From Nanobdellota archaeon (lineage in GTDB: Archaea; Nanobdellota; Nanobdellia; Pacearchaeales; GW2011-AR1), in the NCBI GenBank assembly GCA_038046005.1, contig JBBSXB010000001.1, positions 96,001-160,000 on the forward strand: 64,000 nt of DNA, written 5' to 3'. Below are positions 26,087 to 35,076 of this stretch, piece after piece. Each line of letters starts with the position of its first letter. Within the stretch, counting starts at the first letter, position 1. A program made the position numbers and the translations under genes. Below the pieces are notes generated by a model. The model was not told where the DNA came from. It worked only from the letters and a program-made list of their open reading frames with translations, and searched no databases.

Positions 26087-26866
26087 TCAATCTTTTATTT
26101 TATTTATTCCCAGCGTTTCAAATTTATTCTGGACATGATTAAACAGCGTCGAGGAAATCAAAGGTTGATGCACTCCGGGATGTGTTTGATTATCAAATTT
26201 TACTTTTCCCAAATAAGCCTGATTAGTGAGAATTTTCTTTAGGCCGTTTACAGAAAAACCATATTTTTTTGACAGCTGTGTTAAACTTATTTTCTGGTTT
26301 AAAAAATCTTGGAATACTTCATTGACAAGGTAAGAATTTTCTGCTGGAATAAGTTTTTTATCGACCATTTTATAGCCAAATGGTGCCCTCGTTATTGGAT
26401 TTCCATCACGGGCTTTTTTATCCATACTGAACTTTGTTCTTTCCCCAGTAACATTTCTTTCAAATTCTGCAAAAGCAGATATTATATGAAACATTAACTT
26501 TCCTGAAGCGCTTGTTGTTTCAATTTTGTCCTGCAAAGATATGAAATCAACACCCCATTGTTTTAGTTTTTCTATGGTTTCTATTAAATCTCGCAAAGAA
26601 CGGGAAAATCTATCAAGTTTGTATACGAAAATTGCCTGGAATTTGTGATTTCTCGCATCTTCAAGTAACTCAACTATTTCTGGCCTACCTTTGATATCTT
26701 TGGCAGACTTACCTTCGTCTTTGTATATTCTTAGAACTTCGTAACCTAAAGCAGAAGCATAGTTTTTAAGTGCTTCTTCTTGTGCCGACATCGAAATTCC
26801 ATGCTTGACTTGTTCTTCTGTTGAGACTCTTATGTAAATTGCTGCTAGGGGTTTTATTTGATTCAT
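26087..26866 (-). CDS. Serine recombinase: catalytic plus recombinase domain, lacking the Zn-ribbon/coiled-coil domain
   Basis: YIRVSTEEQ (catalytic Ser), DEGKS..RP, KLDRFSR and FAEFER, then PFGY..ILTNQAYLG..HQPLIS. Likely start is the ATG at 26866, overlapping the upstream stop (ATGA). Confidence 0.92.
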   Translation of the reverse strand: MNQIKPLAAIYIRVSTEEQVKHGISMSAQEEALKNYASALGYEVLRIYKDEGKSAKDIKGRPEIVELLEDARNHKFQAIFVYKLDRFSRSLRDLIETIEKLKQWGVDFISLQDKIETTSASGKLMFHIISAFAEFERNVTGERTKFSMDKKARDGNPITRAPFGYKMVDKKLIPAENSYLVNEVFQDFLNQKISLTQLSKKYGFSVNGLKKILTNQAYLGKVKFDNQTHPGVHQPLISSTLFNHVQNKFETLGINKIKD

Positions 26867-27513
26867 GCTTTCACGCCTATCAAAACCGTCCAAACAGGAC
26901 CAACAGATTTAATTTTCAGGTCTTGGCAATAATTTGAAAGAAGAACCTTAATGTTAGTTAAGTCTACTCTATCAAATGAAGCTTTGTCTAAGACAGTTTT
27001 GTCTTCCTTTATAGACATAACCTTAAAGCCCAAGTAGGAATAATATTTTCTTAAAAAGGTTGTTGTTCTTTTGTCTCTTTTCCAAGTGAATATCAAAATT
27101 GTGCCTCCTCTTTTTGTTACTCTTAAAATTTCTCTTAATAGTTTCTCTTTGGAATCAATGCTTCCAATGAGATTATAAGCCGCATAAGTTACGTCAAAAA
27201 AATTGTCTGGAAAAGTCATGTTGAAAGCATCCATGTTTAAAATCTCAACATTAGGAGAGTTTGCAAGATTTTTTCGAGCAATTTTTAATACTGATTCGTT
27301 ATTATCTATGCCAACAAGTTTTTTCACGAACTGAAACAACTTGTCTGCAGGTCTACCTGTCCCACAACCAACATCTAGGACAACTTTGTTTTGGCATATT
27401 TTTTTTAAAAGGTTGAACTCATATTTGAATGACTCTTTAGCCTCCTTTAATGGTTTTTCTACTGCTTTTACTTGCTCTCTGACATACTCTTGACCATAAT
27501 CTCTCTTTTCCAC
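26863..27513 (-). CDS. Class I SAM-dependent methyltransferase (UbiE-like)
   Basis: VLDVGCGTG, FPDNFFDV and EILRVTKRGG; GTG start. Confidence 0.85.
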   Translation of the reverse strand: MEKRDYGQEYVREQVKAVEKPLKEAKESFKYEFNLLKKICQNKVVLDVGCGTGRPADKLFQFVKKLVGIDNNESVLKIARKNLANSPNVEILNMDAFNMTFPDNFFDVTYAAYNLIGSIDSKEKLLREILRVTKRGGTILIFTWKRDKRTTTFLRKYYSYLGFKVMSIKEDKTVLDKASFDRVDLTNIKVLLSNYCQDLKIKSVGPVWTVLIGVKA

Positions 27514-27521
27514 ATACTTAT

Positions 27522-27580
27522 TTGTGCACTTAGGTTTAAAAAGTTATTGTGCACGTGGATTTAGGACACCCTAAGTGCGC
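27522..27580. repeat. Half-sites of the recombinase-associated repeat, bracketing the operon promoter
   Basis: TTGTGCACTTAGGTT (27522-36) and TTGTGCAC...TTAGG-ACAC-CCTAAGTGC (27547-78); GCACTTAGG and CCTAAGTGC are inverted. Confidence 0.75.
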
Positions 27581-27682: not shown

Positions 27683-27988
27683 TTATTCTGCTTCTTTAGA
27701 GATTACTTTAACTAAGTCATATCTTGAAGAACTTGCGTCAGCTGGCGGATTTTTAATTTTTGTTATTTTTACTTCAAGAACATATGAATATCCTTCTTCA
27801 TAATCAAATCCATCAATAGAATTATAGAAACGTTCCCCATTCACTATCAAACACTTCATTGGGACTCCACCAACACAATCAACCTTATTTGGACCAATAG
27901 TAATGGTTTCAGTACTAGGAAAAGTTGTAAAGAGTAGTATTATTATAAAAATTATAATGTAAAACCACCATTTTTTTAGTAAATTCAT
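27683..27988 (-). CDS. DUF4377-like membrane-anchored/secreted protein
   Basis: N-terminal TM, CVGGVPMKCL, FYNSIDGFDYEEGYSY.L.V and PPADASS..Y.L. Confidence 0.8.
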   Translation of the reverse strand: MNLLKKWWFYIIIFIIILLFTTFPSTETITIGPNKVDCVGGVPMKCLIVNGERFYNSIDGFDYEEGYSYVLEVKITKIKNPPADASSSRYDLVKVISKEAE

Positions 27989-28050
27989 AATTAGTTTAAT
28001 AAAACAGAGTTTAAAATATTTCCCCTAAAATTTTCCAATTTCTTTTGTGA

Positions 28051-28083
28051 CCTGCCATGGTTGTGCACTTAGGTTGGCTAAGT
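28051..28083 (+). repeat. 33-bp direct repeat copy 1, candidate recombination site
   Basis: CCTGCCATGGTTGTGCACTTAGGTTGGCTAAGT; internal inverted repeat CACTTAG-N5-CTAAGT(G). Confidence 0.9.
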
Positions 28084-28163
28084 GAATACGCAAAATACAG
28101 AGATATTAGAAAAAAAATTGAAATAAGTTTAAAGAAAAAATAAAATTAAAGATCGAACTGGAA

Positions 28164-28331
28164 CTATTTCTTTCTCGATTGATAGTTTCTCATCAATTTG
28201 CCTACACCTACAATGAGCCAAGCCAAAGCAATTAGCCATGCGGAAAGTGTTATACCAATATCAAGGCCAATAAGTGGTAGTATAAGTAAAACACCGACTA
28301 ATGTGACAAGCCAAGCTGTTACCTTTGCCAT
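28164..28331 (-). CDS. 55-aa two-helix hydrophobic protein (not in ORF track)
   Basis: MAKVTAWLVTLVGVLLILPLIGLDIGITLSAWLIALAWLIVGVGKLMRNYQSRKK. AGGAGGG SD and TTATAA upstream; paralog at 50627-50773. Confidence 0.8.
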   Translation of the reverse strand: MAKVTAWLVTLVGVLLILPLIGLDIGITLSAWLIALAWLIVGVGKLMRNYQSRKK

Positions 28332-28516
28332 TTCAACCCTCCTTTGATATACCCTAAAGAAAACAAGGGTTATAAGGTTTTTGCTAGCTTGAAGATTAGA
28401 GATTCAATTGTGTTATTAATTTGTAAAACATACAATTAATGCGGCGAGAGTTGGAATATTCTGATAACAATAATCTTACAAATTTCGCGCCATTTTTCGA
28501 CATCAATCTCTTTAGG

Positions 28517-28549
28517 CCTGCCACAGTTGTGCACTTAGGTTGGCTAAGT
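28517..28549 (+). repeat. 33-bp direct repeat copy 2
   Basis: CCTGCCACAGTTGTGCACTTAGGTTGGCTAAGT, 31/33 identical to 28051-28083. Confidence 0.9.
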
Positions 28550-28582
28550 ATATGCTGAGCTAGTTAAGACATGTAGAAAATG

Positions 28583-28712
28583 GTTGTTTAAACATGTGTT
28601 TTTGTGTTTAATCGACGGAAAAATTGATTAGAAATCGCTAAGAAAAACAGGTGTTGATTAGGGTGTTTGTCCGTTTAAACAGTGTTTATGGTTGTTTTAA
28701 ACAGCTGTTTTG
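28583..28712. repeat. Cluster of AAACA-N2-TGTTT palindromic boxes
   Basis: 28590 AAACATGTGTTT, 28645 AAACAGGTGTTG, 28677 AAACAGTGTTT and 28699 AAACAGCTGTTT. Confidence 0.7.
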
Positions 28713-28872
28713 CCATTAAAAATAGGGAAAAACATCATATTTTAAGACAAAAACATGCTAAAAAATAAATGAATTTCCCTCCAAAAAATTGGGTGCGAGA
28801 TAGATAAAAATTGAGGTAAGATGAAATTTACGACGTAAAAAAAGAAATATTTATAAAGGTTGAAAATCTAAA

Positions 28873-29511
28873 TTGAGTATGTTTGATTGGTTCTTTAAAA
28901 AAAGAGAGAAAAAAGAGTTAAAACACATAGAAGAAGATACAAAAAAGGGTTTTGAAAGTGTCAAAAAAGATATAACAGCTGTAATAGGATGGATCAAACA
29001 CCTAGATTCTGAGAAAAATCTGCAACAAAAAGAGATTGAAGACATAAAAGAGGATTTGTCGACGGTAAAAAATGACATTGAAAGCATTAAAAATATCATA
29101 ACTATGATGAATGAATTAAAACCTCAAGGAGTGTTTAAAACAAACAGACAGGTGTTTAAAGAACAAACACCTGTTTATGCTGTTCAAACAGTTGACCAAA
29201 CAGGCGTTCAAACACCAAATTTAAACCAATTTTCAGTAACTGAAAGAGCAATTCTATGGATTCTCTTAAACTCAGAAATGAAACTGGGATATGAAGATCT
29301 AGCTGCAATGTTGGGAAAAGAAAAGTCCACCATAAGGGGGCAGATAAATAGTATAAAACAAAAAAGTGAAAATTTGATAAGTGAAATTACTGAAAAAAAT
29401 GGAAAAAAGAGAGTATATATAAGTGAAGAAATGAGGGAAAAAATGCTGAAAAAGTCAAAAGTGAGAGTTGGAAATAAGAAAAAAACTGAGAAAAAAGAAG
29501 AAAAAGTCTGA
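28873..29511 (+). CDS. Coiled-coil plus C-terminal winged-helix protein (start may be 28879)
   Basis: Heptad-rich N-half, repeat-encoded linker, and FSVTERAILWILL..YEDLAAMLGKEKSTIRGQINSIK..KNGKKRVY HTH/wing. Confidence 0.75.
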   Translation: MSMFDWFFKKREKKELKHIEEDTKKGFESVKKDITAVIGWIKHLDSEKNLQQKEIEDIKEDLSTVKNDIESIKNIITMMNELKPQGVFKTNRQVFKEQTPVYAVQTVDQTGVQTPNLNQFSVTERAILWILLNSEMKLGYEDLAAMLGKEKSTIRGQINSIKQKSENLISEITEKNGKKRVYISEEMREKMLKKSKVRVGNKKKTEKKEEKV

Positions 29512-29708
29512 AAAGTAAGGAAAAATCAATAAAAAACGATTAAAAAAACAAAAAGTGAGAGTTAAATTACAAGAAAAACAATAAAAAATAAATTACTAAG
29601 TGAAAAGTGAGATGAAAAAATAAAAATGAATTTAAAAAGATTACAAAAGTCTGAAAATGAGAGATACAATAAATGGTAAAAACATAGTTAAAAATAGAAA
29701 AATGAGAG
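29456..29708 (+). repeat. A-rich array of AAAA(G)TGAGA / AAAAGTCTGAAAA direct repeats
   Basis: Copies near 29456, 29502, 29550, 29602, 29645 and 29698 in a strongly purine-skewed segment running from the 3' end of 28873-29511 into the intergenic gap. Confidence 0.6.
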
Positions 29709-29853
29709 AAAAATAAACTTTGAAAAATTGGACTAACTTGAAAAATTAAAAAATAGGCTTTTTAGGGGCTAAAAAGACAAAATTTATAGGTATGAAAAAA
29801 TAAACAAGAAGAAAATGTTCTATTAGAAATTGTTTTGTTGAACGAATAACTAT

Positions 29854-30585
29854 TTACAATTCTCTAAGTTTTAATATTGTTTGAAGGGAGGCAATTTTCT
29901 TTAAGCCGGCTGAAACGTTTAAATGGACATTCTTATTGTTAAGTTTGATTTTATCGACGGGAATTCCCTTTGAGATGATCTTACTGATATAATCTCTTAT
30001 GGAGCTTTCAGTAAGGTTAAGCTTCAGGGCAATGGCCTTATAATCAGCATATCCTTGCTCTTCCTCTAGCTGGTATAATGTTGAAAATACTAAAATTTCC
30101 TTTTCTGTAAGCTTCTTGAATTTCAGCCTTATTTCTTTTTTTAAGGTATCTAAAGATTCAAGTATTTTGGAGGCATCGTGAAGGGTAGTTTTGGGAATCT
30201 CTAAAGGAAAAATCAAGCTATTTTGTGTCTGTTGGTCTGTCTGTTGGTCTGTCTGTCTGTCTGCTGGAACCCCATCATTTCCTATGGAAATAGCTTGATT
30301 TTGGGGTTTTAAAGCCTTAAAAGACTCATTATCTGCTGGGCTTTGTGTTGAGGTTGTCTTATTCTCCAAACTATGTGATGGAGTTAAAAAAGTTGAATTT
30401 TGAAGTATTTTAGAAGAAATAGAAATTAATTCCCTGTTTAAATCCTTTAACTCTCTAACCTCTTCCCCTAAATTGGAAAGTTTCCAATTCAACTCCACTA
30501 GGTTGGTTTTTAGAGAATTTAACTCGTAACTAAGAGAAGAGATGTCTTGTTTAACTTTTTGAAAGGCCTCTTTTATCTCATCCAT
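29854..30585 (-). CDS. Coiled-coil plus C-terminal winged-helix protein
   Basis: Heptad N-terminus, GNDGVPADRQTDQQTDQQT linker, and LTEKEILVFSTLY..YKAIALKLNLTESSIRDYISKIISKG HTH. Confidence 0.75.
   Translation of the reverse strand: MDEIKEAFQKVKQDISSLSYELNSLKTNLVELNWKLSNLGEEVRELKDLNRELISISSKILQNSTFLTPSHSLENKTTSTQSPADNESFKALKPQNQAISIGNDGVPADRQTDQQTDQQTQNSLIFPLEIPKTTLHDASKILESLDTLKKEIRLKFKKLTEKEILVFSTLYQLEEEQGYADYKAIALKLNLTESSIRDYISKIISKGIPVDKIKLNNKNVHLNVSAGLKKIASLQTILKLREL
30226..30267. repeat. Intragenic TGTCTG(T/C)TGG / GTCT tandem repeats
   Basis: TGTCTGTTGG at 30226 and 30238, TGTCTGCTGG at 30258, with a related TATCTGCTGG at 30330. Confidence 0.7.
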
Positions 30586-30634
30586 TTTAATTTATAATAA
30601 AAAGAGTATAAAAAGATTATAGTAATGGAGAATA

Positions 30635-30913
30635 TTAAAAATTTTGAGGTTGACTTTTTTTATAGGAGGAATAAGCTTCATCGCTTAATTTCCACCGGGA
30701 TCTTCTTAGATAGACTTTTCCGAGTGGATTTTTGTTTACCTCTACAATAAGTTTCTTGGCTTTCAGATCCTTGAGAAGTCTTTTAACAAATTCCTCATCC
30801 CGAGCTATTTCTCTTGCTACATAATACGTAAACATAGGTTGGGGTGAAACAGAATAGAGAAAAGCTAGAATCTGTTCGCATATCTTCTGCTTTTTCTCTT
30901 TTGATATGTACAT
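30635..30913 (-). CDS. Small winged-helix-like protein (likely start MYISKEKK at 30913)
   Basis: EQILAFLY..MFTYYVAREIARDEEFVKRLLKDLKAKKLIVEV HTH-like pattern. Confidence 0.65.
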   Translation of the reverse strand: MYISKEKKQKICEQILAFLYSVSPQPMFTYYVAREIARDEEFVKRLLKDLKAKKLIVEVNKNPLGKVYLRRSRWKLSDEAYSSYKKSQPQNF

Positions 30914-30971
30914 TAAAGGAAAAATAAAAGGGTTTATATAAAGGTTTTTGAAAGAAAGATTATTATGGGGG

Positions 30972-31388
30972 TTAATTCTCAATCTCGTCCTTTTTTAAAG
31001 AAGGTAATTGAATATGGAGGGGTATGCCCAGCTCTTCTTCTAATTGAAGCGCCTTGAGGGTCGATTTCCTTAAAATAGAGTTAAGGATAAAGAGATTGAA
31101 GGCTTCTGGAGCATTTTTATCCTTCCATGTACTCAACACTTCTTTGGATATTTTAGGGTCAACAGAAACAAGAGTATTTCCCTCAAAAAAGATCTTGGCG
31201 AAGTCCGGTTCATAATTAAGAGAAAAACTGAATTTCAAGTTCAAAAGAGATTCTTTAGAGTTAAATATATCTGCCTTAGCTTCACTGATATCGAGTATAT
31301 CCATTTTGGTGTTTATATTTACACCTTTAAAGTTGGTGGAATTTCGTTCCGCGTTTATCCTTGTAAAATTAAATCCTAAGAGTTTCAT
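30972..31388 (-). CDS. Conserved hypothetical protein, possible SecB-like fold
   Basis: Beta-rich 138-aa protein ending in helix plus PLHIQLP. The fold is only an inference. Confidence 0.55.
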   Translation of the reverse strand: MKLLGFNFTRINAERNSTNFKGVNINTKMDILDISEAKADIFNSKESLLNLKFSFSLNYEPDFAKIFFEGNTLVSVDPKISKEVLSTWKDKNAPEAFNLFILNSILRKSTLKALQLEEELGIPLHIQLPSLKKDEIEN

Positions 31389-31427
31389 ACTAAATGGTAA
31401 AGAAAATTATTTTTAAATATTTAGGTA

Positions 31428-31697
31428 CTAAATTAAGTCTTCCTCAGATACTATAACAAAATCGCCTATGGCGATTATAGCACTATAAGGGACTAATAAG
31501 TCATTTGAAGAAGTTTTTTCAAGATTTAAGTTCCTCGTGTAAGGTGTTGCATCTTTAACAACTAAACTGATAAGCTCACCAGATCTAGTCTCAAAGGTAA
31601 CATCTTTGACAAAACCAAGTCTTTTACCCTCTTTCGTGACAATCATCTTGCCTAAAAGCGCACTAAATGGATTTTTATTGTCTTGCATGTTAAGCAT
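31428..31697 (-). CDS. PRC-barrel domain protein (CdpB-like)
   Basis: LLGKMIVTKEGKRLGFVKDVTFETRSGEL..VPYSAIIAIGDFVIV. Confidence 0.85.
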   Translation of the reverse strand: MLNMQDNKNPFSALLGKMIVTKEGKRLGFVKDVTFETRSGELISLVVKDATPYTRNLNLEKTSSNDLLVPYSAIIAIGDFVIVSEEDLI

Positions 31698-31788
31698 AGA
31701 AGAGATTTGTTTATAAATTTTTCTGTACCAACAAATAGATTTGAAAGAATATAGATAACTGGATTAATGGAAGATAATAACGAGCAGA

Positions 31789-32297
31789 CACACTCCTTGA
31801 TTTCGTTTGGAAAAGATTTATAAAGGATTTTTTAATTTTTTTTGTTTTTGTTTTATTTATAAATTTTTCTATAATAATATAATATAATATAATATAATTA
31901 ACTTATCTTGAATTATTATTATTATTATTATTATTATTAATTTGTATTAAGCCGCTAATTTTATTGTGGGATTTAAAAGAACAAAATGCTAATCTGGAGT
32001 TCACAAGGACTTTAATGGTTCTTATTCATGATAGTTATTATTAAATTTTCTAACAAAAGATATTCCAATCTCCCATATAACATTAAAGTTGAAGTTTTAA
32101 AAATTAAAATTATCATAAAAGCCATGATAACTTATATTTACCAATAATCATCTTATCTTTAAAGAAGCGTTTTCCATTAGAAATTAAGGCGTCTTTCTTT
32201 CTTAGTAGTCATAATCCTTTATAAAAAGAATACTTCTTTTTCCGTTGAGGAAATTTTTGAATAAACAATCTCCAGTGGAAATTAGCGTGTGGGTGTG
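31789..32297. other. Chromosomal replication origin (oriC): ORB elements flanking an AT-rich DUE
   Basis: Inverted ORB at 31789-31813 (rc TTTCCAAACGAAATCAAGGAGTGTG); ORBs at 32171-93 (TTTCCATTAGAAATTAAGGCGTC) and 32269-97 (TCTCCAGTGGAAATTAGCGTGTGGG); near-pure AT tract at about 31830-31950; directly upstream of cdc6. Confidence 0.85.
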
Positions 32298-32308
32298 AAA
32301 AGAATAAA

Positions 32309-33520
32309 ATGACTAACGAACTAGACCAAATTTTTGAATCGTTTACGAAAAATAATATTTTCAAAGATAAATCTCTATTACAGGCCTCATATAAACCGGA
32401 CAAAATTCTTCATAGAGATCAACAAGTCAACCAGATTGCGTCTATTTTAGCCCCCGTTCTCCGAGGAGAGAAAACCAGTAATTTATTTCTTTATGGAAAA
32501 ACTGGGACTGGGAAAACCCTTTCTGTTTATTATGTTAGGGAAGAATTGATGAAGAGAATTAATAAAAGCGAGGATTTTAAATTGAGAATAGAATATCTCA
32601 ATTGTAAATTAAAGAAAGTTTCAGACACCGAATATAGAATTTTGGCAGAACTTGTAAAGAAATTTGGTGGAGAAGTGCCTGCAACGGGGCTTCCTACAGA
32701 GTCTGTTTATAATAAATTTATAGAACTCATAGACAAAGAGAAACAAATTATAGTCTTGATTTTAGATGAGATTGATCAAACTGTCAAAAAGATTTCTAGC
32801 GATTTTTTGTACAACCTAACAAGGTTAAACTCAGAACTTTCAAAAACGCAACTTTGCATTGTTGGAATAAGCAACAATTTGACTTTTTTGGAGGAACTTG
32901 ACCCAAGAGTCAGGAGTTCCTTATCTGAAGAAGAAATTGTTTTTCCACCTTATAATGCTTTACAACTTAAAGATATCTTAAACCGGAGATCAGAGCACGC
33001 ATTCAAGGAAGGAGTTTTACAACCTGGAGTCATTGACAAATGCTCGGCTTTTGCAGCAAGGGAGCATGGTGATGCAAGAAGGGCCTTGGACCTTTTGCGA
33101 ATTGCTGGTGAGCTGGCCGAAAGGGAAGGGAGTAAAAAAATTTTGTTAAAACATATTGATGAGGCAAATGACAAAATTGAGAAAGACAAAATACTAGATG
33201 TTATAAAAACAGAGCCAAAACAATTCCAACTTGTTCTTTACTCTATAATGAAACTTTCAGACAAAAAAAACGGAGAGCCCCTGTTTACTGGAGATGTCTA
33301 TAATTTGTATCAGGAAATTTGTTTAAAAAATAAACTAGAAGTTTTAACCCAAAGAAGGATGAGTGACATAATCCAGGAATTTGACATGTTGGGGATTATT
33401 AATGTTAAGGTTATTTCAAAGGGGAGAGGGGGGAGGATGAGAGAAATTAAACTGGCTATCTCGAAGGATGTTCTCTTCAAAGCAAGAGAAATTGTTGAAG
33501 ATTCTTTAGATTATAAATAA
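32309..33520 (+). CDS. cdc6: Orc1/Cdc6 replication initiator
   Basis: YGKTGTGKT, ILDEID, DPRVRSSL, GDARRALDLLR and a wHTH C-terminus. Confidence 0.97.
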   Translation: MTNELDQIFESFTKNNIFKDKSLLQASYKPDKILHRDQQVNQIASILAPVLRGEKTSNLFLYGKTGTGKTLSVYYVREELMKRINKSEDFKLRIEYLNCKLKKVSDTEYRILAELVKKFGGEVPATGLPTESVYNKFIELIDKEKQIIVLILDEIDQTVKKISSDFLYNLTRLNSELSKTQLCIVGISNNLTFLEELDPRVRSSLSEEEIVFPPYNALQLKDILNRRSEHAFKEGVLQPGVIDKCSAFAAREHGDARRALDLLRIAGELAEREGSKKILLKHIDEANDKIEKDKILDVIKTEPKQFQLVLYSIMKLSDKKNGEPLFTGDVYNLYQEICLKNKLEVLTQRRMSDIIQEFDMLGIINVKVISKGRGGRMREIKLAISKDVLFKAREIVEDSLDYK

Positions 33521-33525
33521 CTAAA

Positions 33526-35076
33526 ATGGACGCAAAAGAAATACTAAAATTTTGTTTAGAAAGAGGACTTTTAGTCGATCAAGAAGTTTTAACTTTGCTT
33601 AGTGGCGAGTCTGATTTAGAGTCTGTTAAACTTATGATTGAAAAAATAAAGACCCATACACAAAAAAAGATTATAACTAAAGAACTTTTTATTCAAAATA
33701 AAGATAAAGTCGGCAAATTTTTTTTAACTCTGCCGGAAGAGAACCAACAACAACTTGAGAAGCTGAAAATAAAACTTGGATTAAGCATAGAAATATCTAA
33801 GGAAATTTCTATTTCTGGCGAGAAAACAATCCCAGATGACATCGGACATAAAGGAGATGTTAAAATTTTGTCGCTTAGCGGGCCTATTGGAAAAAGGTTT
33901 GATTCTGGAGATTTTGTTAACTATTTCAAAGGGAGATTTTCTGAGATGAGGGGATTTTTACAGAGCAATCCTATTCTTGAAAATTTAGTTTCAATAGACA
34001 AGATATCTGGAGTTCGTCATGGAATTTCTATAATCGGGATGGTTTATGAAAAAAGAGTCACTAAAAATCAGAATATTATTTTAGATATTGAAGATTCTAC
34101 TGGAACAATAAAAGTTTTAATCAATAAAGACAAAGCGGAACTTTTGAAAAAAGCTGAGGAAATTGCATTGGATTCTGTAATTGGTTTTAAATGTTCTGGG
34201 GGCAGGGAGATGCTTTTTGTCAATGATATAATTTTTCCGGAGGCAATGTTATTAGAAAAAAGAAAATCTCCTGTCGAAGAATATGCTTTGTTTGTAAGCG
34301 ATGTTCACTATGGCAGCAAGAATTTTATGAAAGAAAATTTTTTGAGATTTATTGATTATCTAAATAGTGATGACCTTGAAGTTTCAAAAATAAAATATGT
34401 TTTTATAATCGGTGATTTGGTTGCGGGTGTTGGGGTTTATCCTAATCAAGAAAAAGATCTAGTAGTTGTTGATTTAGAAGATCAGTACACTGGAATTGCC
34501 GAACTTCTTGGAAAGATAAGGAAAGACATAATATTGATAATTTCAACAGGAGATCATGAGGGAGTAAGAATTATGGAGCCACAACCTCTTTACGATGAGA
34601 AACATGCTTGGGCCTTGCACCAAATGGATAATGTCATTCTTACTGAAAATCCTGCTTTGGTGAGTGTTGGGACAAAAAAGGATTTTTCTGGAATTAAAGT
34701 TTTATCTTATCACGGTCATTCTTACCCATTTTATGCCAATAGTGTCCCAAGGCTCATGAAGATGAAAGCAATGAATTATCCTGAAAAAATTATGGAATAC
34801 TTGCTTAAACATAGACATCTTGCACCAACTCATGGGTCAACACAGTACTTTCCGACAAAAGATGTGCATATAATCAGAGAAATTCCAGACATTTTTGTTT
34901 CTGGACATACCCACAAAAGCGGAGTTACTTATTTTAATAACGTACTCGTTATTTCGTGTTCGTGCTGGGAAACTCTTACTTCTTACCAGGAAAAAGTAGG
35001 CAATATGCCTGACCATTGCAAAGTTCCTTTAGTAAATTTGAAGACGAGAGCAGTTAAAATTTTGGACTTTGAGTGA
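33526..35076 (+). CDS. polB: DNA polymerase D small subunit DP1
   Basis: OB fold plus metallophosphoesterase domain (SDVHYG, GDLV, RHLAPTHG, SGHTH). Confidence 0.93.
   Translation: MDAKEILKFCLERGLLVDQEVLTLLSGESDLESVKLMIEKIKTHTQKKIITKELFIQNKDKVGKFFLTLPEENQQQLEKLKIKLGLSIEISKEISISGEKTIPDDIGHKGDVKILSLSGPIGKRFDSGDFVNYFKGRFSEMRGFLQSNPILENLVSIDKISGVRHGISIIGMVYEKRVTKNQNIILDIEDSTGTIKVLINKDKAELLKKAEEIALDSVIGFKCSGGREMLFVNDIIFPEAMLLEKRKSPVEEYALFVSDVHYGSKNFMKENFLRFIDYLNSDDLEVSKIKYVFIIGDLVAGVGVYPNQEKDLVVVDLEDQYTGIAELLGKIRKDIILIISTGDHEGVRIMEPQPLYDEKHAWALHQMDNVILTENPALVSVGTKKDFSGIKVLSYHGHSYPFYANSVPRLMKMKAMNYPEKIMEYLLKHRHLAPTHGSTQYFPTKDVHIIREIPDIFVSGHTHKSGVTYFNNVLVISCSCWETLTSYQEKVGNMPDHCKVPLVNLKTRAVKILDFE

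Follow-up and report, generated by a model that had tools for sequence, protein, structure and literature searches.

Candidate protein-binding DNA elements inside the linker codons of two convergent coiled-coil/winged-helix genes beside the cdc6 origin of a Nanobdellota archaeon

Introduction

To our knowledge, nothing has been established experimentally about the control of replication in DPANN archaea. Here, we analyze a 64,000-nucleotide stretch of a Nanobdellota archaeon genome (contig JBBSXB010000001.1, or C1:96001-160000; hereafter the window), and within it a pair of convergent genes, gene 1 and gene 2, that lie close to the orc1/cdc6 initiator gene and its intergenic origin. The genome comprises 874,611 bases at 33% G+C in 15 contigs. 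Each of the two genes encodes a coiled coil, a linker and a winged-helix domain, and each holds a conserved DNA element within its linker codons: an array of palindromes in gene 1 and a full origin recognition box (ORB) followed by a tetranucleotide tract in gene 2. We propose that both linkers are probably protein-binding DNA elements of the origin neighborhood that happen to lie inside open reading frames (ORFs). ORBs inside genes and origins inside initiator genes are already known; among the titles and abstract openings listed in searches of the literature on DPANN replication origins, none describes the present module.

Results

Two convergent genes next to a canonical intergenic origin

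Gene 1 occupies positions 28879-29511 on the plus strand (210 aa from its ATG; a longer ORF starts at 28873) and converges with gene 2 on the minus strand (29854-30585, 243 aa). Three minus-strand genes separate gene 2 from the origin: one for a small winged-helix-like protein (wH; 30635-30982), an ORF that matches no family (30972-31388) and one for a PRC-barrel protein (31428-31697; Pfam PRC, E 2.2e-9). The canonical cdc6-adjacent intergenic origin spans the next 610 bp (31698-32308) and contains ORB-like boxes and an AT-rich tract: a minus-strand box at 31789-31814, a putative unwinding element at ~31870-31940 made of pure AT microsatellites, (TAATA)n then (ATT)n, and the plus-strand sequence CTCCAGTGGAAAT...GGGTG at 32266-32293. 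The orc1/cdc6 gene follows (32309-33520, plus strand; Pfam Cdc6_C 5.5e-27, Cdc6_lid 1.6e-26 and AAA domains), adjoined by the gene for the PolD small subunit (33526-35076). A preliminary description of the window, made from the sequence without database searches, had placed the module 1.2-3 kb from oriC, cdc6 and polD, and the coordinates agree.

The same description had assigned both genes the architecture of coiled coil, linker and winged helix-turn-helix (HTH), which is borne out by the ORFs and by AlphaFold2 models built on alignments. In the models, each protein has a long N-terminal helix (residues 2-80 of gene 1, 2-63 of gene 2), a disordered middle in which the predicted local distance difference test score (pLDDT) stays below 50 (residues 83-112 and 64-133, respectively) and a C-terminal winged helix of three helices and two strands. 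Foldseek searches of the PDB matched the gene 1 model to MepR (3eco, E 3.6e-4) and the gene 2 model to a MarR-family protein (3nqo, E 4.1e-4) and MarR (3bpx, E 4.4e-4), each at a probability of 1.0 over 80-120 columns, and the winged-helix matches include DNA-bound MarR-type dimers (MepR, 3eco and 4lll; MarR, 3bpx; AbfR2, 6cmv). Neither protein reaches the cut-off of any Pfam or NCBIfam model, and Pfam listed no MarR model; against a cut-off of 25 bits each, the best Pfam matches are HTH_11 for gene 1 (15.3 bits) and HTH_36 and HTH_11 for gene 2 (19.4 and 19.3 bits). A sequence search of the PDB with both profiles gave only weak HTH or coiled-coil matches (E 0.005 or worse), and a protein atlas search returned Nanobdellota clusters only, with partial HTH_11/HTH_24 labels. 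BLASTP found no significant similarity between the two proteins and hhalign gave 55% probability over 32 HTH columns; the case for a kinship beyond a common architecture is thus weak, and common descent may or may not apply. Gene 1 has 1904 relatives at E<=0.001, of which the 120 listed are 65-100% identical; among the matches listed, those with a name belong to Nanoarchaeota, Pacearchaeota, Woesearchaeota or similar groups, and the remainder are hypothetical. A mobile-element origin of the pair found no support: no relatives were present in a viral contig collection, plasmid and phage record collections not having been searched.

The disordered middle is also where each peptide is most conserved. 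The conserved segments, FKT..KQTxVYAVQTGVQTGVQTPNL in gene 1 and S(T)GNEGVPTDRQT (S-T-G-N-E-G-V-P-T-D-R-Q-T) in gene 2, are modeled as disordered with pLDDT values of 37-43.

Silent sites of the linker codons are fixed

Comparisons were made over a main sample of 80 species loci from the GTDB genome collection (one locus, whose ORF ran off its contig, was dropped and the window was added), with codon alignments of 80 sequences for gene 1 and of the 74 complete ORFs for gene 2. Six genes from the same loci served as controls: cdc6, the PolD small subunit, the PRC barrel, the neighboring ORF, ribosomal protein S9 and the serine recombinase. Third-position entropy drops to 0.37-0.47 bits over gene 1 codons 98-113, against a gene mean of 1.05, and to as little as 0.12 bits over gene 2 codons 99-117, against 1.30 for the whole gene. 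Averaged over nine codons, entropy reaches a minimum of 0.37 bits for gene 1 and 0.12 for gene 2, and the minima of the six controls fall between 0.78 and 1.09; the very conserved cdc6 and PRC-barrel genes show no trough, and neither does the PolD small-subunit gene (lowest value 0.84).

Individual codons are fixed to match. In gene 2, S100 is TCC in 74/74 sequences, G105 is GGG in 73/74, D109 is GAC in 71/71, Q111 is CAG in 73/74 and T112 is ACA in 74/74. In gene 1, Q103, Q107 and Q111 are CAA in 79/79 each, Q91 is CAG in 50/51, A101 is GCT in 56/56 and G105 is GGT in 47/48. The control genes use TCC for 6% of Ser, GGG for 20% of Gly, GAC for 20% of Asp, GTG for 11% of Val and CGT for 4% of Arg. 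At the palindrome center of gene 1 the residue itself varies (G, A, P or R, encoded by GGT, GCT, CCT or CGT) with the third base fixed as T, so that the pattern inside the palindromes is the inverse of protein constraint. Moreover, AAACAG[G/C]TGTT is read in two frames within gene 1, as K-Q-V/L-F and as Q-T-G/A-V. The suggestion that the repeats act as DNA rather than as peptide is supported by these fixed silent sites, by the occurrence of the words in different frames and by their non-coding copies, and the ortholog alignments show the pattern anticipated for binding sites, namely conserved nucleotide motifs, suppressed synonymous change and a variable copy number upstream. We consider it almost certain that the constraint on the linkers acts on DNA.

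A palindrome array in and upstream of gene 1

The gene 1 palindrome is a dyad-symmetric site of 12 bp with the consensus (T)AAACAG[G/C]TGTT(T). Four copies of the form AAACA-N(1-2)-TGTT(T/G) make up a non-coding array at 28583-28712, 170-290 bp before the gene 1 ATG: AAACATGTGTTT (28590-28601) and AAACAGCTGTTT (28699-28710) are exact, AAACAGGTGTTG (28645-28656) has one mismatch and AAACAGTGTTT (28677-28687) has a center of 1 nt instead of 2 nt. The in-gene array, supported by the codon counts and the entropy trough, covers codons ~83-111 (29125-29210) and contains AGACAGGTGTTT at 29146 (one mismatch), AAACACCTGTTT at 29165 (exact) and the degenerate AAACAGGCGTTC at 29198 (two mismatches). All of these positions had been listed in the preliminary description and all hold, with the qualification that the copies at 28645, 28677, 29146 and 29198 depart from the palindrome in the ways just given.

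With up to one mismatch allowed, the window holds 17 palindromes against 11.8 +/- 3.5 in shuffled sequence, which is not significant overall; five of the 17, including all three exact copies, fall in 28590-29176. Seven exact palindromes exist in the whole genome, three of them within 600 bp at this locus, and AACAGSTGTT occurs only twice outside the locus, which by our own estimate is about the expectation from base composition. The motif is therefore essentially confined to the locus at the scale of the genome and is not over-represented across the window as a whole.

In the family, the centers of the in-gene sites are fixed at +264, +283, +304 and +316 from the ATG, giving spacings of 19, 21 and 12 bp, and 72/80 sequences have 3-5 in-gene ACA-NN-TGT sites. 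At least one ACA-NN-TGT site is present within 600 bp upstream in 63/80 sequences, in numbers (0-5) and positions that vary. The 80 sequences (822,631 bases) contain 322 matches to AACAGSTGTT, of which 189 lie in gene 1, 106 within 500 bp upstream, 27 farther upstream and none downstream. The 27 distant sites, at -842 to -5986, are good sites with the same flanks, and several lie inside unrelated genes on the other strand, where they read KQLFKQ (HAD hydrolases, Xer-type integrases and the C terminus of the serine recombinase). The window itself has no such extra far-upstream palindromes, and the cdc6-upstream origin DNA of the 80 loci has no palindromes.

A serine recombinase gene (26087-26893, minus strand; Resolvase 1.4e-42 plus a Recombinase domain) lies 2 kb to the left of gene 1 and is found in 46/80 loci. 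Its C-terminal codons hold the gene 1 palindrome in some relatives (e.g., L022), and in others an Xer-type integrase occupies this neighborhood and carries the palindrome. Two other ideas about the palindrome were set aside. One, that it is a mini-ORB, was rejected: the TTCC and GAA cores described as invariant in mini-ORBs (PMC1904270) are missing from it, and it does not occur in cdc6-upstream DNA. The other was a joint loss of the small wH gene and the palindromes in loci L038 and L039; the sites there are degenerate rather than lost, and the two loci are close kin and count as one event at most.

An origin recognition box and a tetranucleotide tract in gene 2

Codons ~99-107 of gene 2 (30266-30291, minus strand) spell out a full ORB, ATTTCCATAGGAAATGATGGGGTTCC, whose core in the window is TTTCCATAGGAAAT. 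The sense strand is invariant in the family as ATTTCCA[CT][AT]GGAAAT.AAGGGGTTCC, then ACAGACAGACAG..., and thus contains the ORB dyad core TTCCA-N(2-3)-GGAAA, here TTTCCA[CT][AT]GGAAAT with 95-100% column identity, and a G-string, GGGG, directly after GAA at 99-100%. This matches the euryarchaeal consensus given as GTTCCAGTGGAAAC-AAA----GGGGG (Norais et al. 2007, PMC1868953), except that the spacing from GAA to the G-string is four bases shorter. Scanned with a position-weight matrix built from the in-gene elements without the window's own sequence, the gene 2 ORB is the best match in the genome by a wide gap, 41.4 bits against 11.9 for the next. With the gene 2 matrix at a threshold of 10 bits, the 80 sequences give 139 matches and 40 shuffled loci give none; 79 of the matches lie in gene 2, 46 in the intergenic DNA upstream of cdc6, 9 upstream of gene 1 and 5 elsewhere. 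One of the cdc6-upstream matches is that of locus L003 (36 bits at +3354). The in-gene ORB is oriented like the left-hand intergenic box at 31789, with its G-string pointing away from cdc6.

The G-string is followed by a translated tetranucleotide tract of CAGA type, DRQTDQQTDQQT (30226-30265, minus strand), which on the sense strand is a (CAGA)n-type repeat with a 12-nt super-period. Nowhere else in the genome does an exact tetranucleotide array reach four units, as (GTCT)4 does here at 30247-30262. The preliminary description had seen the gene 2 linker as built from TGTCTG(T/C)TGG, and the copies of that motif at 30227-30266 are real; the full ORB that adjoins them had been overlooked. A perfect 15-bp inverted repeat (30209-30223 and 30288-30302, with 64 nt between the arms) brackets the tract and overlaps the ORB. 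Between lineages, the unit of the tract changes (CACG/CACT, CAAA, CAAT, CATT, CAGA, CCAA or one 12-mer) and its position after the ORB is kept; the peptide following the ORB differs completely by lineage (ARTH, SLTH, NKQT, INQS, HSFI, TDRQ, PTNQ) and the 4-nt DNA repeat stays.

The idea that the gene 2 protein reads its own tract found no support, since the unit changes without a change in the recognition helix. Among 91 gene 2 orthologs tabulated, 86 have RDY-type helices, 73 of them IRDY[IV], and this one helix goes with CAGA in 60 cases, CCAA in 4, CAAA in 3 and CAAC, CACT, CATC, CAAT and CACC in 1 each. Four loci (L026, L068, L073 and L080) have contigs that break off within gene 2 at residues 92-113, precisely where the ORB and tract lie; these ends may be assembly breaks at a length-variable repeat and hint at length heterogeneity in the populations. 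A second, weaker ORB-like box stands near the main one inside gene 2 in L010 (+1030 from the gene 1 ATG), L097 (+1248) and L098 (+1274). The boxes of L010 and L098 have the opposite orientation and would each form a convergent pair with the main box around the tract.

Conservation depth and linkage to cdc6

The order gene 1, gene 2, wH, ORF, PRC, cdc6, PolD is kept across the 80 closer loci. Gene 2 is present in 78 of them, each of wH, the ORF and PRC in 69, and cdc6 and PolD in 55 and 53, respectively. Most missing neighbors fall in loci where the contig DNA ends; L043 and L046, however, have ~5.9 kb of downstream DNA that lacks these neighbors. The PRC-barrel gene, the nearest to the origin on the side opposite cdc6, is 69-98% identical among the loci that have it. 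A divergent sample of 18 loci, with gene 1 identities of only 31-51%, retains the convergent pair in 18/18 and the gene 2 ORB in 17/18. All 18 have at least one in-gene AAACA-NN-TGT(C/T)(C/T) site, and an Arg at the palindrome center is always CGT. Real palindromes within 700 bp upstream occur only in the three closest of these loci, from which we conclude that the in-gene array is older than the upstream sites. In 5/5 divergent genomes checked, which are 0.6-0.9 Mb in size, 5.3-9 kb separate the pair from the main cdc6, whose side and orientation are unchanged; together with the count in the closer loci, this upholds the linkage of the orthologs to cdc6 on which the preliminary description had relied. 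Among 301 sampled genomes of the phylum, 49 have a gene 1 relative, including 11/12 in the window's own family.

Other conserved words around gene 1

A MAFFT alignment of 76 upstream regions shows further non-coding blocks, GTGCACTTAGGTT..CT.AGT at ~28528-28560 and TTTAATCGACGGAAAAA at 28607-28623. Just upstream of the ATG, the block AAAA.AAAA..TTTTTAAA is conserved in the same alignment; in the window it is a purine-rich stretch plus TTTATAAA, resembling a B recognition element and TATA box (28836-28862, plus strand), ~25-30 nt before the gene 1 ATG. By its likeness to archaeal promoters, we take this to be the probable gene 1 promoter. By its position, the gene 1 mRNA is probably leaderless or nearly so, which would leave the upstream palindromes outside the transcript.

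The directional word AAAGTGAGAGTT stands at the other end of the gene. One plus-strand copy is coding (29458-29469, read as K-V-R-V at the 3' end of gene 1) and another is non-coding (29552-29563), with a degenerate third copy at 29654 in a region that extends to 29665. AAGTGAG[AT]G has 132 matches in the 80 sequences, 124 of them within -200 to +200 of the gene 1 stop and all 124 on the plus strand. V195 of gene 1 is GTG in 78/80. A word of the AAAGTGAGAGTT type is present in 17/18 divergent loci, where it is read as KVRV, as KSES-stop or not at all.

Some additional repeats touch the same DNA. TTTAATCGACGGAAA (28607-28621) has a near copy, TTTTATCGACGGGAA (29949-29963), within the 3' portion of gene 2, which is translated there from the opposite strand as G-I-P-V-D-K. 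Another conserved block, TTT..CG.CG, immediately precedes the gene 1 TATA-like box; these sequences may represent a fourth type of site. GCACT[AT]AGGT has five copies in the genome, of which three are in the window at 27526, 28065 and 28531 (plus strand). Each of the three is intergenic and precedes one of three consecutive minus-strand genes (a methyltransferase, a DUF4377 protein and a small membrane protein), and the copy at 28531 is part of the block conserved upstream of gene 1 in relatives.

Discussion

The nucleotide-level constraint, the independence of reading frame, the non-coding copies and the lack of a supported RNA fold make protein-binding DNA the best reading of both linkers. 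Taking the sequence evidence together, we put the probability that the two linkers are protein-binding DNA elements of the origin neighborhood inside ORFs at roughly 0.65. The conserved linker peptides would then probably be, for the most part, by-products of translated DNA signals. The two parts of this reading differ in strength. The gene 2 element, by its likeness to ORBs, is very probably a working Orc1/Cdc6 site, and binding of the palindromes by the gene 1 product is a plausible idea to which we give even odds. The preliminary description had each protein bind its own gene. For gene 1 this is still plausible; for gene 2 it found no support, the motif standing beside a canonical ORB, for which Orc1/Cdc6 would be the expected binder.

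Several observations weigh against the proposal. Because some relatives have palindromes in other genes up to 6 kb upstream, the palindrome binder does not serve gene 1 exclusively. Of the three winged-helix proteins in the module, none is tied to the palindrome by evidence, and co-variation of helix and site is uninformative, as neither the gene 1 recognition helix nor the ACA-NN-TGT core varies. In loci L081-L095 the 700 bp before gene 1 hold no real palindromes, and autoregulation through upstream sites therefore cannot be ancestral. The window's own cdc6-proximal boxes score low (11.5 bits at 31789 and <7 bits at 32266 with the gene 2 matrix), so the link from the in-gene ORB to the intergenic origin rests partly on related loci. 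That ORB is single, 1.5 kb from the AT tract and not half of an inverted pair, and thus need not act in initiation. Neither the window nor contig C1 has a GC-skew turning point at the origin that would place it independently. Finally, the codon counts come from related sequences and are not independent events; the argument from them is the contrast with control genes of the same loci.

A rival explanation for gene 1 is an ordinary self-regulating MarR-like factor, either a repressor or an activator. The palindromes would be operators for its own gene and a few neighbors, the in-gene copies would be auxiliary operators or roadblocks, like lacO2 in lacZ, and the proximity to the origin would reflect inherited gene order, unconnected with replication or segregation. 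The MarR-like fold, the upstream palindromes of 63/80 sequences, the extra sites that relatives have in or near neighboring genes, the lack of palindromes in cdc6-upstream origin DNA and the lack of a partition ATPase in the module all suit this account. However, the anciently conserved part is the in-gene array and not the upstream sites, which lie 100-400 bp before the ATG, off the TATA-like box; the two AACAGSTGTT sites outside the locus leave no regulon beyond the neighborhood; the linkage of the pair to cdc6 is kept at class depth in genomes of 0.6-0.9 Mb; and the partner gene carries an ORB. We therefore regard simple self-regulation as unlikely. A different role for the same palindromes would be that of an origin-proximal centromere or domain organizer, in which the arrays form a tether and the coiled-coil winged-helix protein or proteins bound to it bridge or hold sister origins. 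Comparable arrangements would be parS in spo0J, SegB sites, MatP/matS and MaoP/maoS. The site cluster is unique in the genome and adjoins the origin, a long coiled coil could bridge DNA, the extra sites are all on one side of gene 1 (27 upstream, 0 downstream), conservation reaches class depth and clustered, putatively cognate repeats lie at and in the protein's own gene. Against it, the conserved block lacks the partition NTPase gene that accompanies the DNA-binding protein gene in ParABS, SegAB and AspA-ParBA: no ATPase family was matched among the seven scanned proteins, the rest of the genome not having been searched for the ParA/SegA type, and Pfam, NCBIfam and PDB profile searches showed no homology to any known centromere-binding protein. 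We judge a centromere quite improbable.

The two remaining accounts place the signal in the transcript or in the peptide. An RNA-level element (a structured mRNA, a small RNA embedded in it or the target of an RNA-binding protein) would suit the strict directionality of AAAGTGAGAGTT near the gene 1 stop, which also fits a terminator-related signal, and for that word alone an RNA reading may hold. For the linkers it is very improbable. RNAalifold on 37 gene 1 linker sequences gave -1.72 kcal/mol with 0 compensatory pairs and no supported fold, Rfam (E<=1) matched no family in 27900-32400 and ARAGORN found no tRNA in 27-33 kb. Moreover, a palindrome of 5+2+5 cannot form a hairpin of its own. Some copies precede the TATA-like box of a gene whose mRNA probably has no leader, and others are found within different genes on the other strand; the gene 2 element, in turn, has matching boxes in origin DNA that is not transcribed. 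The peptide-level account, in which the linkers are short linear motifs for a partner protein and codon bias explains the rest, can point to the near invariance of both conserved segments in the family. Yet the codons used are rare ones (TCC, GAC, GTG, CGT), the variable residues sit at the palindrome centers, the words recur in different frames as well as outside coding DNA, the peptide that follows the ORB is replaced between lineages under a constant 4-nt period and the segments are modeled as disordered. Very recent common ancestry as an artifact is argued against by a third-position entropy of ~1.2 bits elsewhere in both genes. A peptide-level explanation is therefore contradicted by the codon data, and we regard it as extremely improbable.

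The reading of the linkers as protein-binding DNA has precedents among known systems. For gene 2, the closest is the cluster of ORB3 and mini-ORBs within dp1, the PolD small-subunit gene of Pyrococcus and Thermococcus, at which Cdc6/Orc1 binding was reported in Pyrococcus by chromatin immunoprecipitation and gel shift (Matsunaga et al. 2007, PMC1904270). As that work describes it, an ORB likewise lies in a coding gene a few kilobases from cdc6, as a second location beside the intergenic origin, and the cluster is conserved across an order. In contrast, the host here is an uncharacterized coiled-coil winged-helix gene on the other side of the origin, and it holds one full ORB rather than a cluster, followed by the tetranucleotide tract. 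The gene 2 ORB also falls in a disordered linker whose peptide looks like a by-product, and Orc1/Cdc6 is its predicted binder. With canonical ORBs, as laid out by Norais et al. (PMC1868953), the gene 2 element shares the TTCCA-NN-GGAAA dyad, the GAA/AAA spacer, the G-string and the location near cdc6; it differs in lying in coding DNA, 1.5 kb from the AT region and unpaired, in having its G-string directly after the spacer and in extending into the tetranucleotide tract. GT stretches are described after some haloarchaeal ORBs in the same paper, and the polarity of archaeal ORBs and their ORB2-unwinding element-ORB3 layout are set out in more recent work (PMC12141716).

For gene 1, the comparison with lambda O drawn in the preliminary description is apt. 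The lambdoid origin lies inside the initiator gene O, with iterons and an AT-rich region mid-gene (PMC7466680), and going by that account both genes have about four dyad sites, roughly two helical turns apart, in the code for an inter-domain linker, where extra sites add extra residues. Unlike O, gene 1 belongs to the chromosome, is conserved at class depth and had no relatives in the collection of viral contigs searched; it has no homology to O, and no phage replication-protein family is among its Pfam and NCBIfam matches. No AT-rich unwinding tract adjoins its array, the winged-helix codons following directly, and a canonical Orc1/ORB origin is 2.5 kb away; self-binding by its product is a prediction. 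MarR dimers bind palindromes, and the C-terminal domains of both proteins share the MarR fold. Their dimerization, however, would run through an N-terminal coiled coil of 60-80 residues followed by a disordered linker, and not through the helices that flank the MarR domain. A further parallel is UBP, the accessory origin-binding protein of Sulfolobales, with its ucm motif (Dhanaraju et al. 2025, PMC12141716), whose authors ask whether other archaeal lineages have analogs. As reported there, UBP is also a DNA-binding protein that is specific to its lineage and is not an initiator, and its conserved motif likewise stands in or close to archaeal origins, but it binds inside the unwinding element and at >300 other genomic sites, whereas the gene 1 palindromes do not occur in the intergenic DNA of the origin and have hardly any further copies in the genome. 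Judged by the paper's description, the two folds are unrelated.

The analysis itself establishes the constraint on nucleotides, the restriction of the motifs to the locus, the ORB by its sequence, the kept linkage to cdc6 and the folds. How the locus would work can be sketched from these elements, with the identity of the binders and the effect of binding being what we infer. Orc1/Cdc6 would bind the gene 2 ORB as a distal ORB in the same direction as the left-hand intergenic ORB, and the adjoining tract would be a DNA feature whose unit drifts between lineages. Codons ~83-111 of gene 1 would offer 3-5 dyad sites, 12-21 bp apart, to a dimeric winged-helix protein. The gene 1 product, dimerized via its coiled coil, would be the most economical binder, and a MarR-like domain dimerized in this way would fit a 12-bp dyad. 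Self-binding would lead to autoregulation and possibly to a loop or a larger nucleoprotein complex beside the origin. The function of the locus may accordingly range from autoregulation with an intragenic auxiliary site to an origin-accessory complex or a tether. We speculate further, with more doubt than confidence, that the pair forms an accessory module, so far undescribed, of the chromosomal origin in Nanoarchaeota (DPANN), in which Orc1/Cdc6 at the gene 2 ORB and coiled-coil winged-helix dimers at the palindrome arrays within and to the left of gene 1 build a large nucleoprotein assembly flanking oriC. It would either define a boundary or loop for initiation or keep sister origins tethered. 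Both genes would then have been molded around the sites, with their most conserved residues lacking any protein function, and the tract next to the ORB might serve as a tunable spacer.

If the linkers are protein-binding DNA, the locus is a clean case from nature of codons being subordinate to signals in the DNA. What look like the most conserved "peptide motifs" in the two families are probably not protein features, which bears on the inference of function from conserved disordered motifs, on family models and on tests of selection applied to gene 1 and gene 2. Accessory origin factors in archaea are only recently emerging, with UBP and ucm as the example at hand (PMC12141716). Should the present module influence segregation or the firing of the origin, the Orc1/ORB paradigm would gain a component that extends across a whole lineage.

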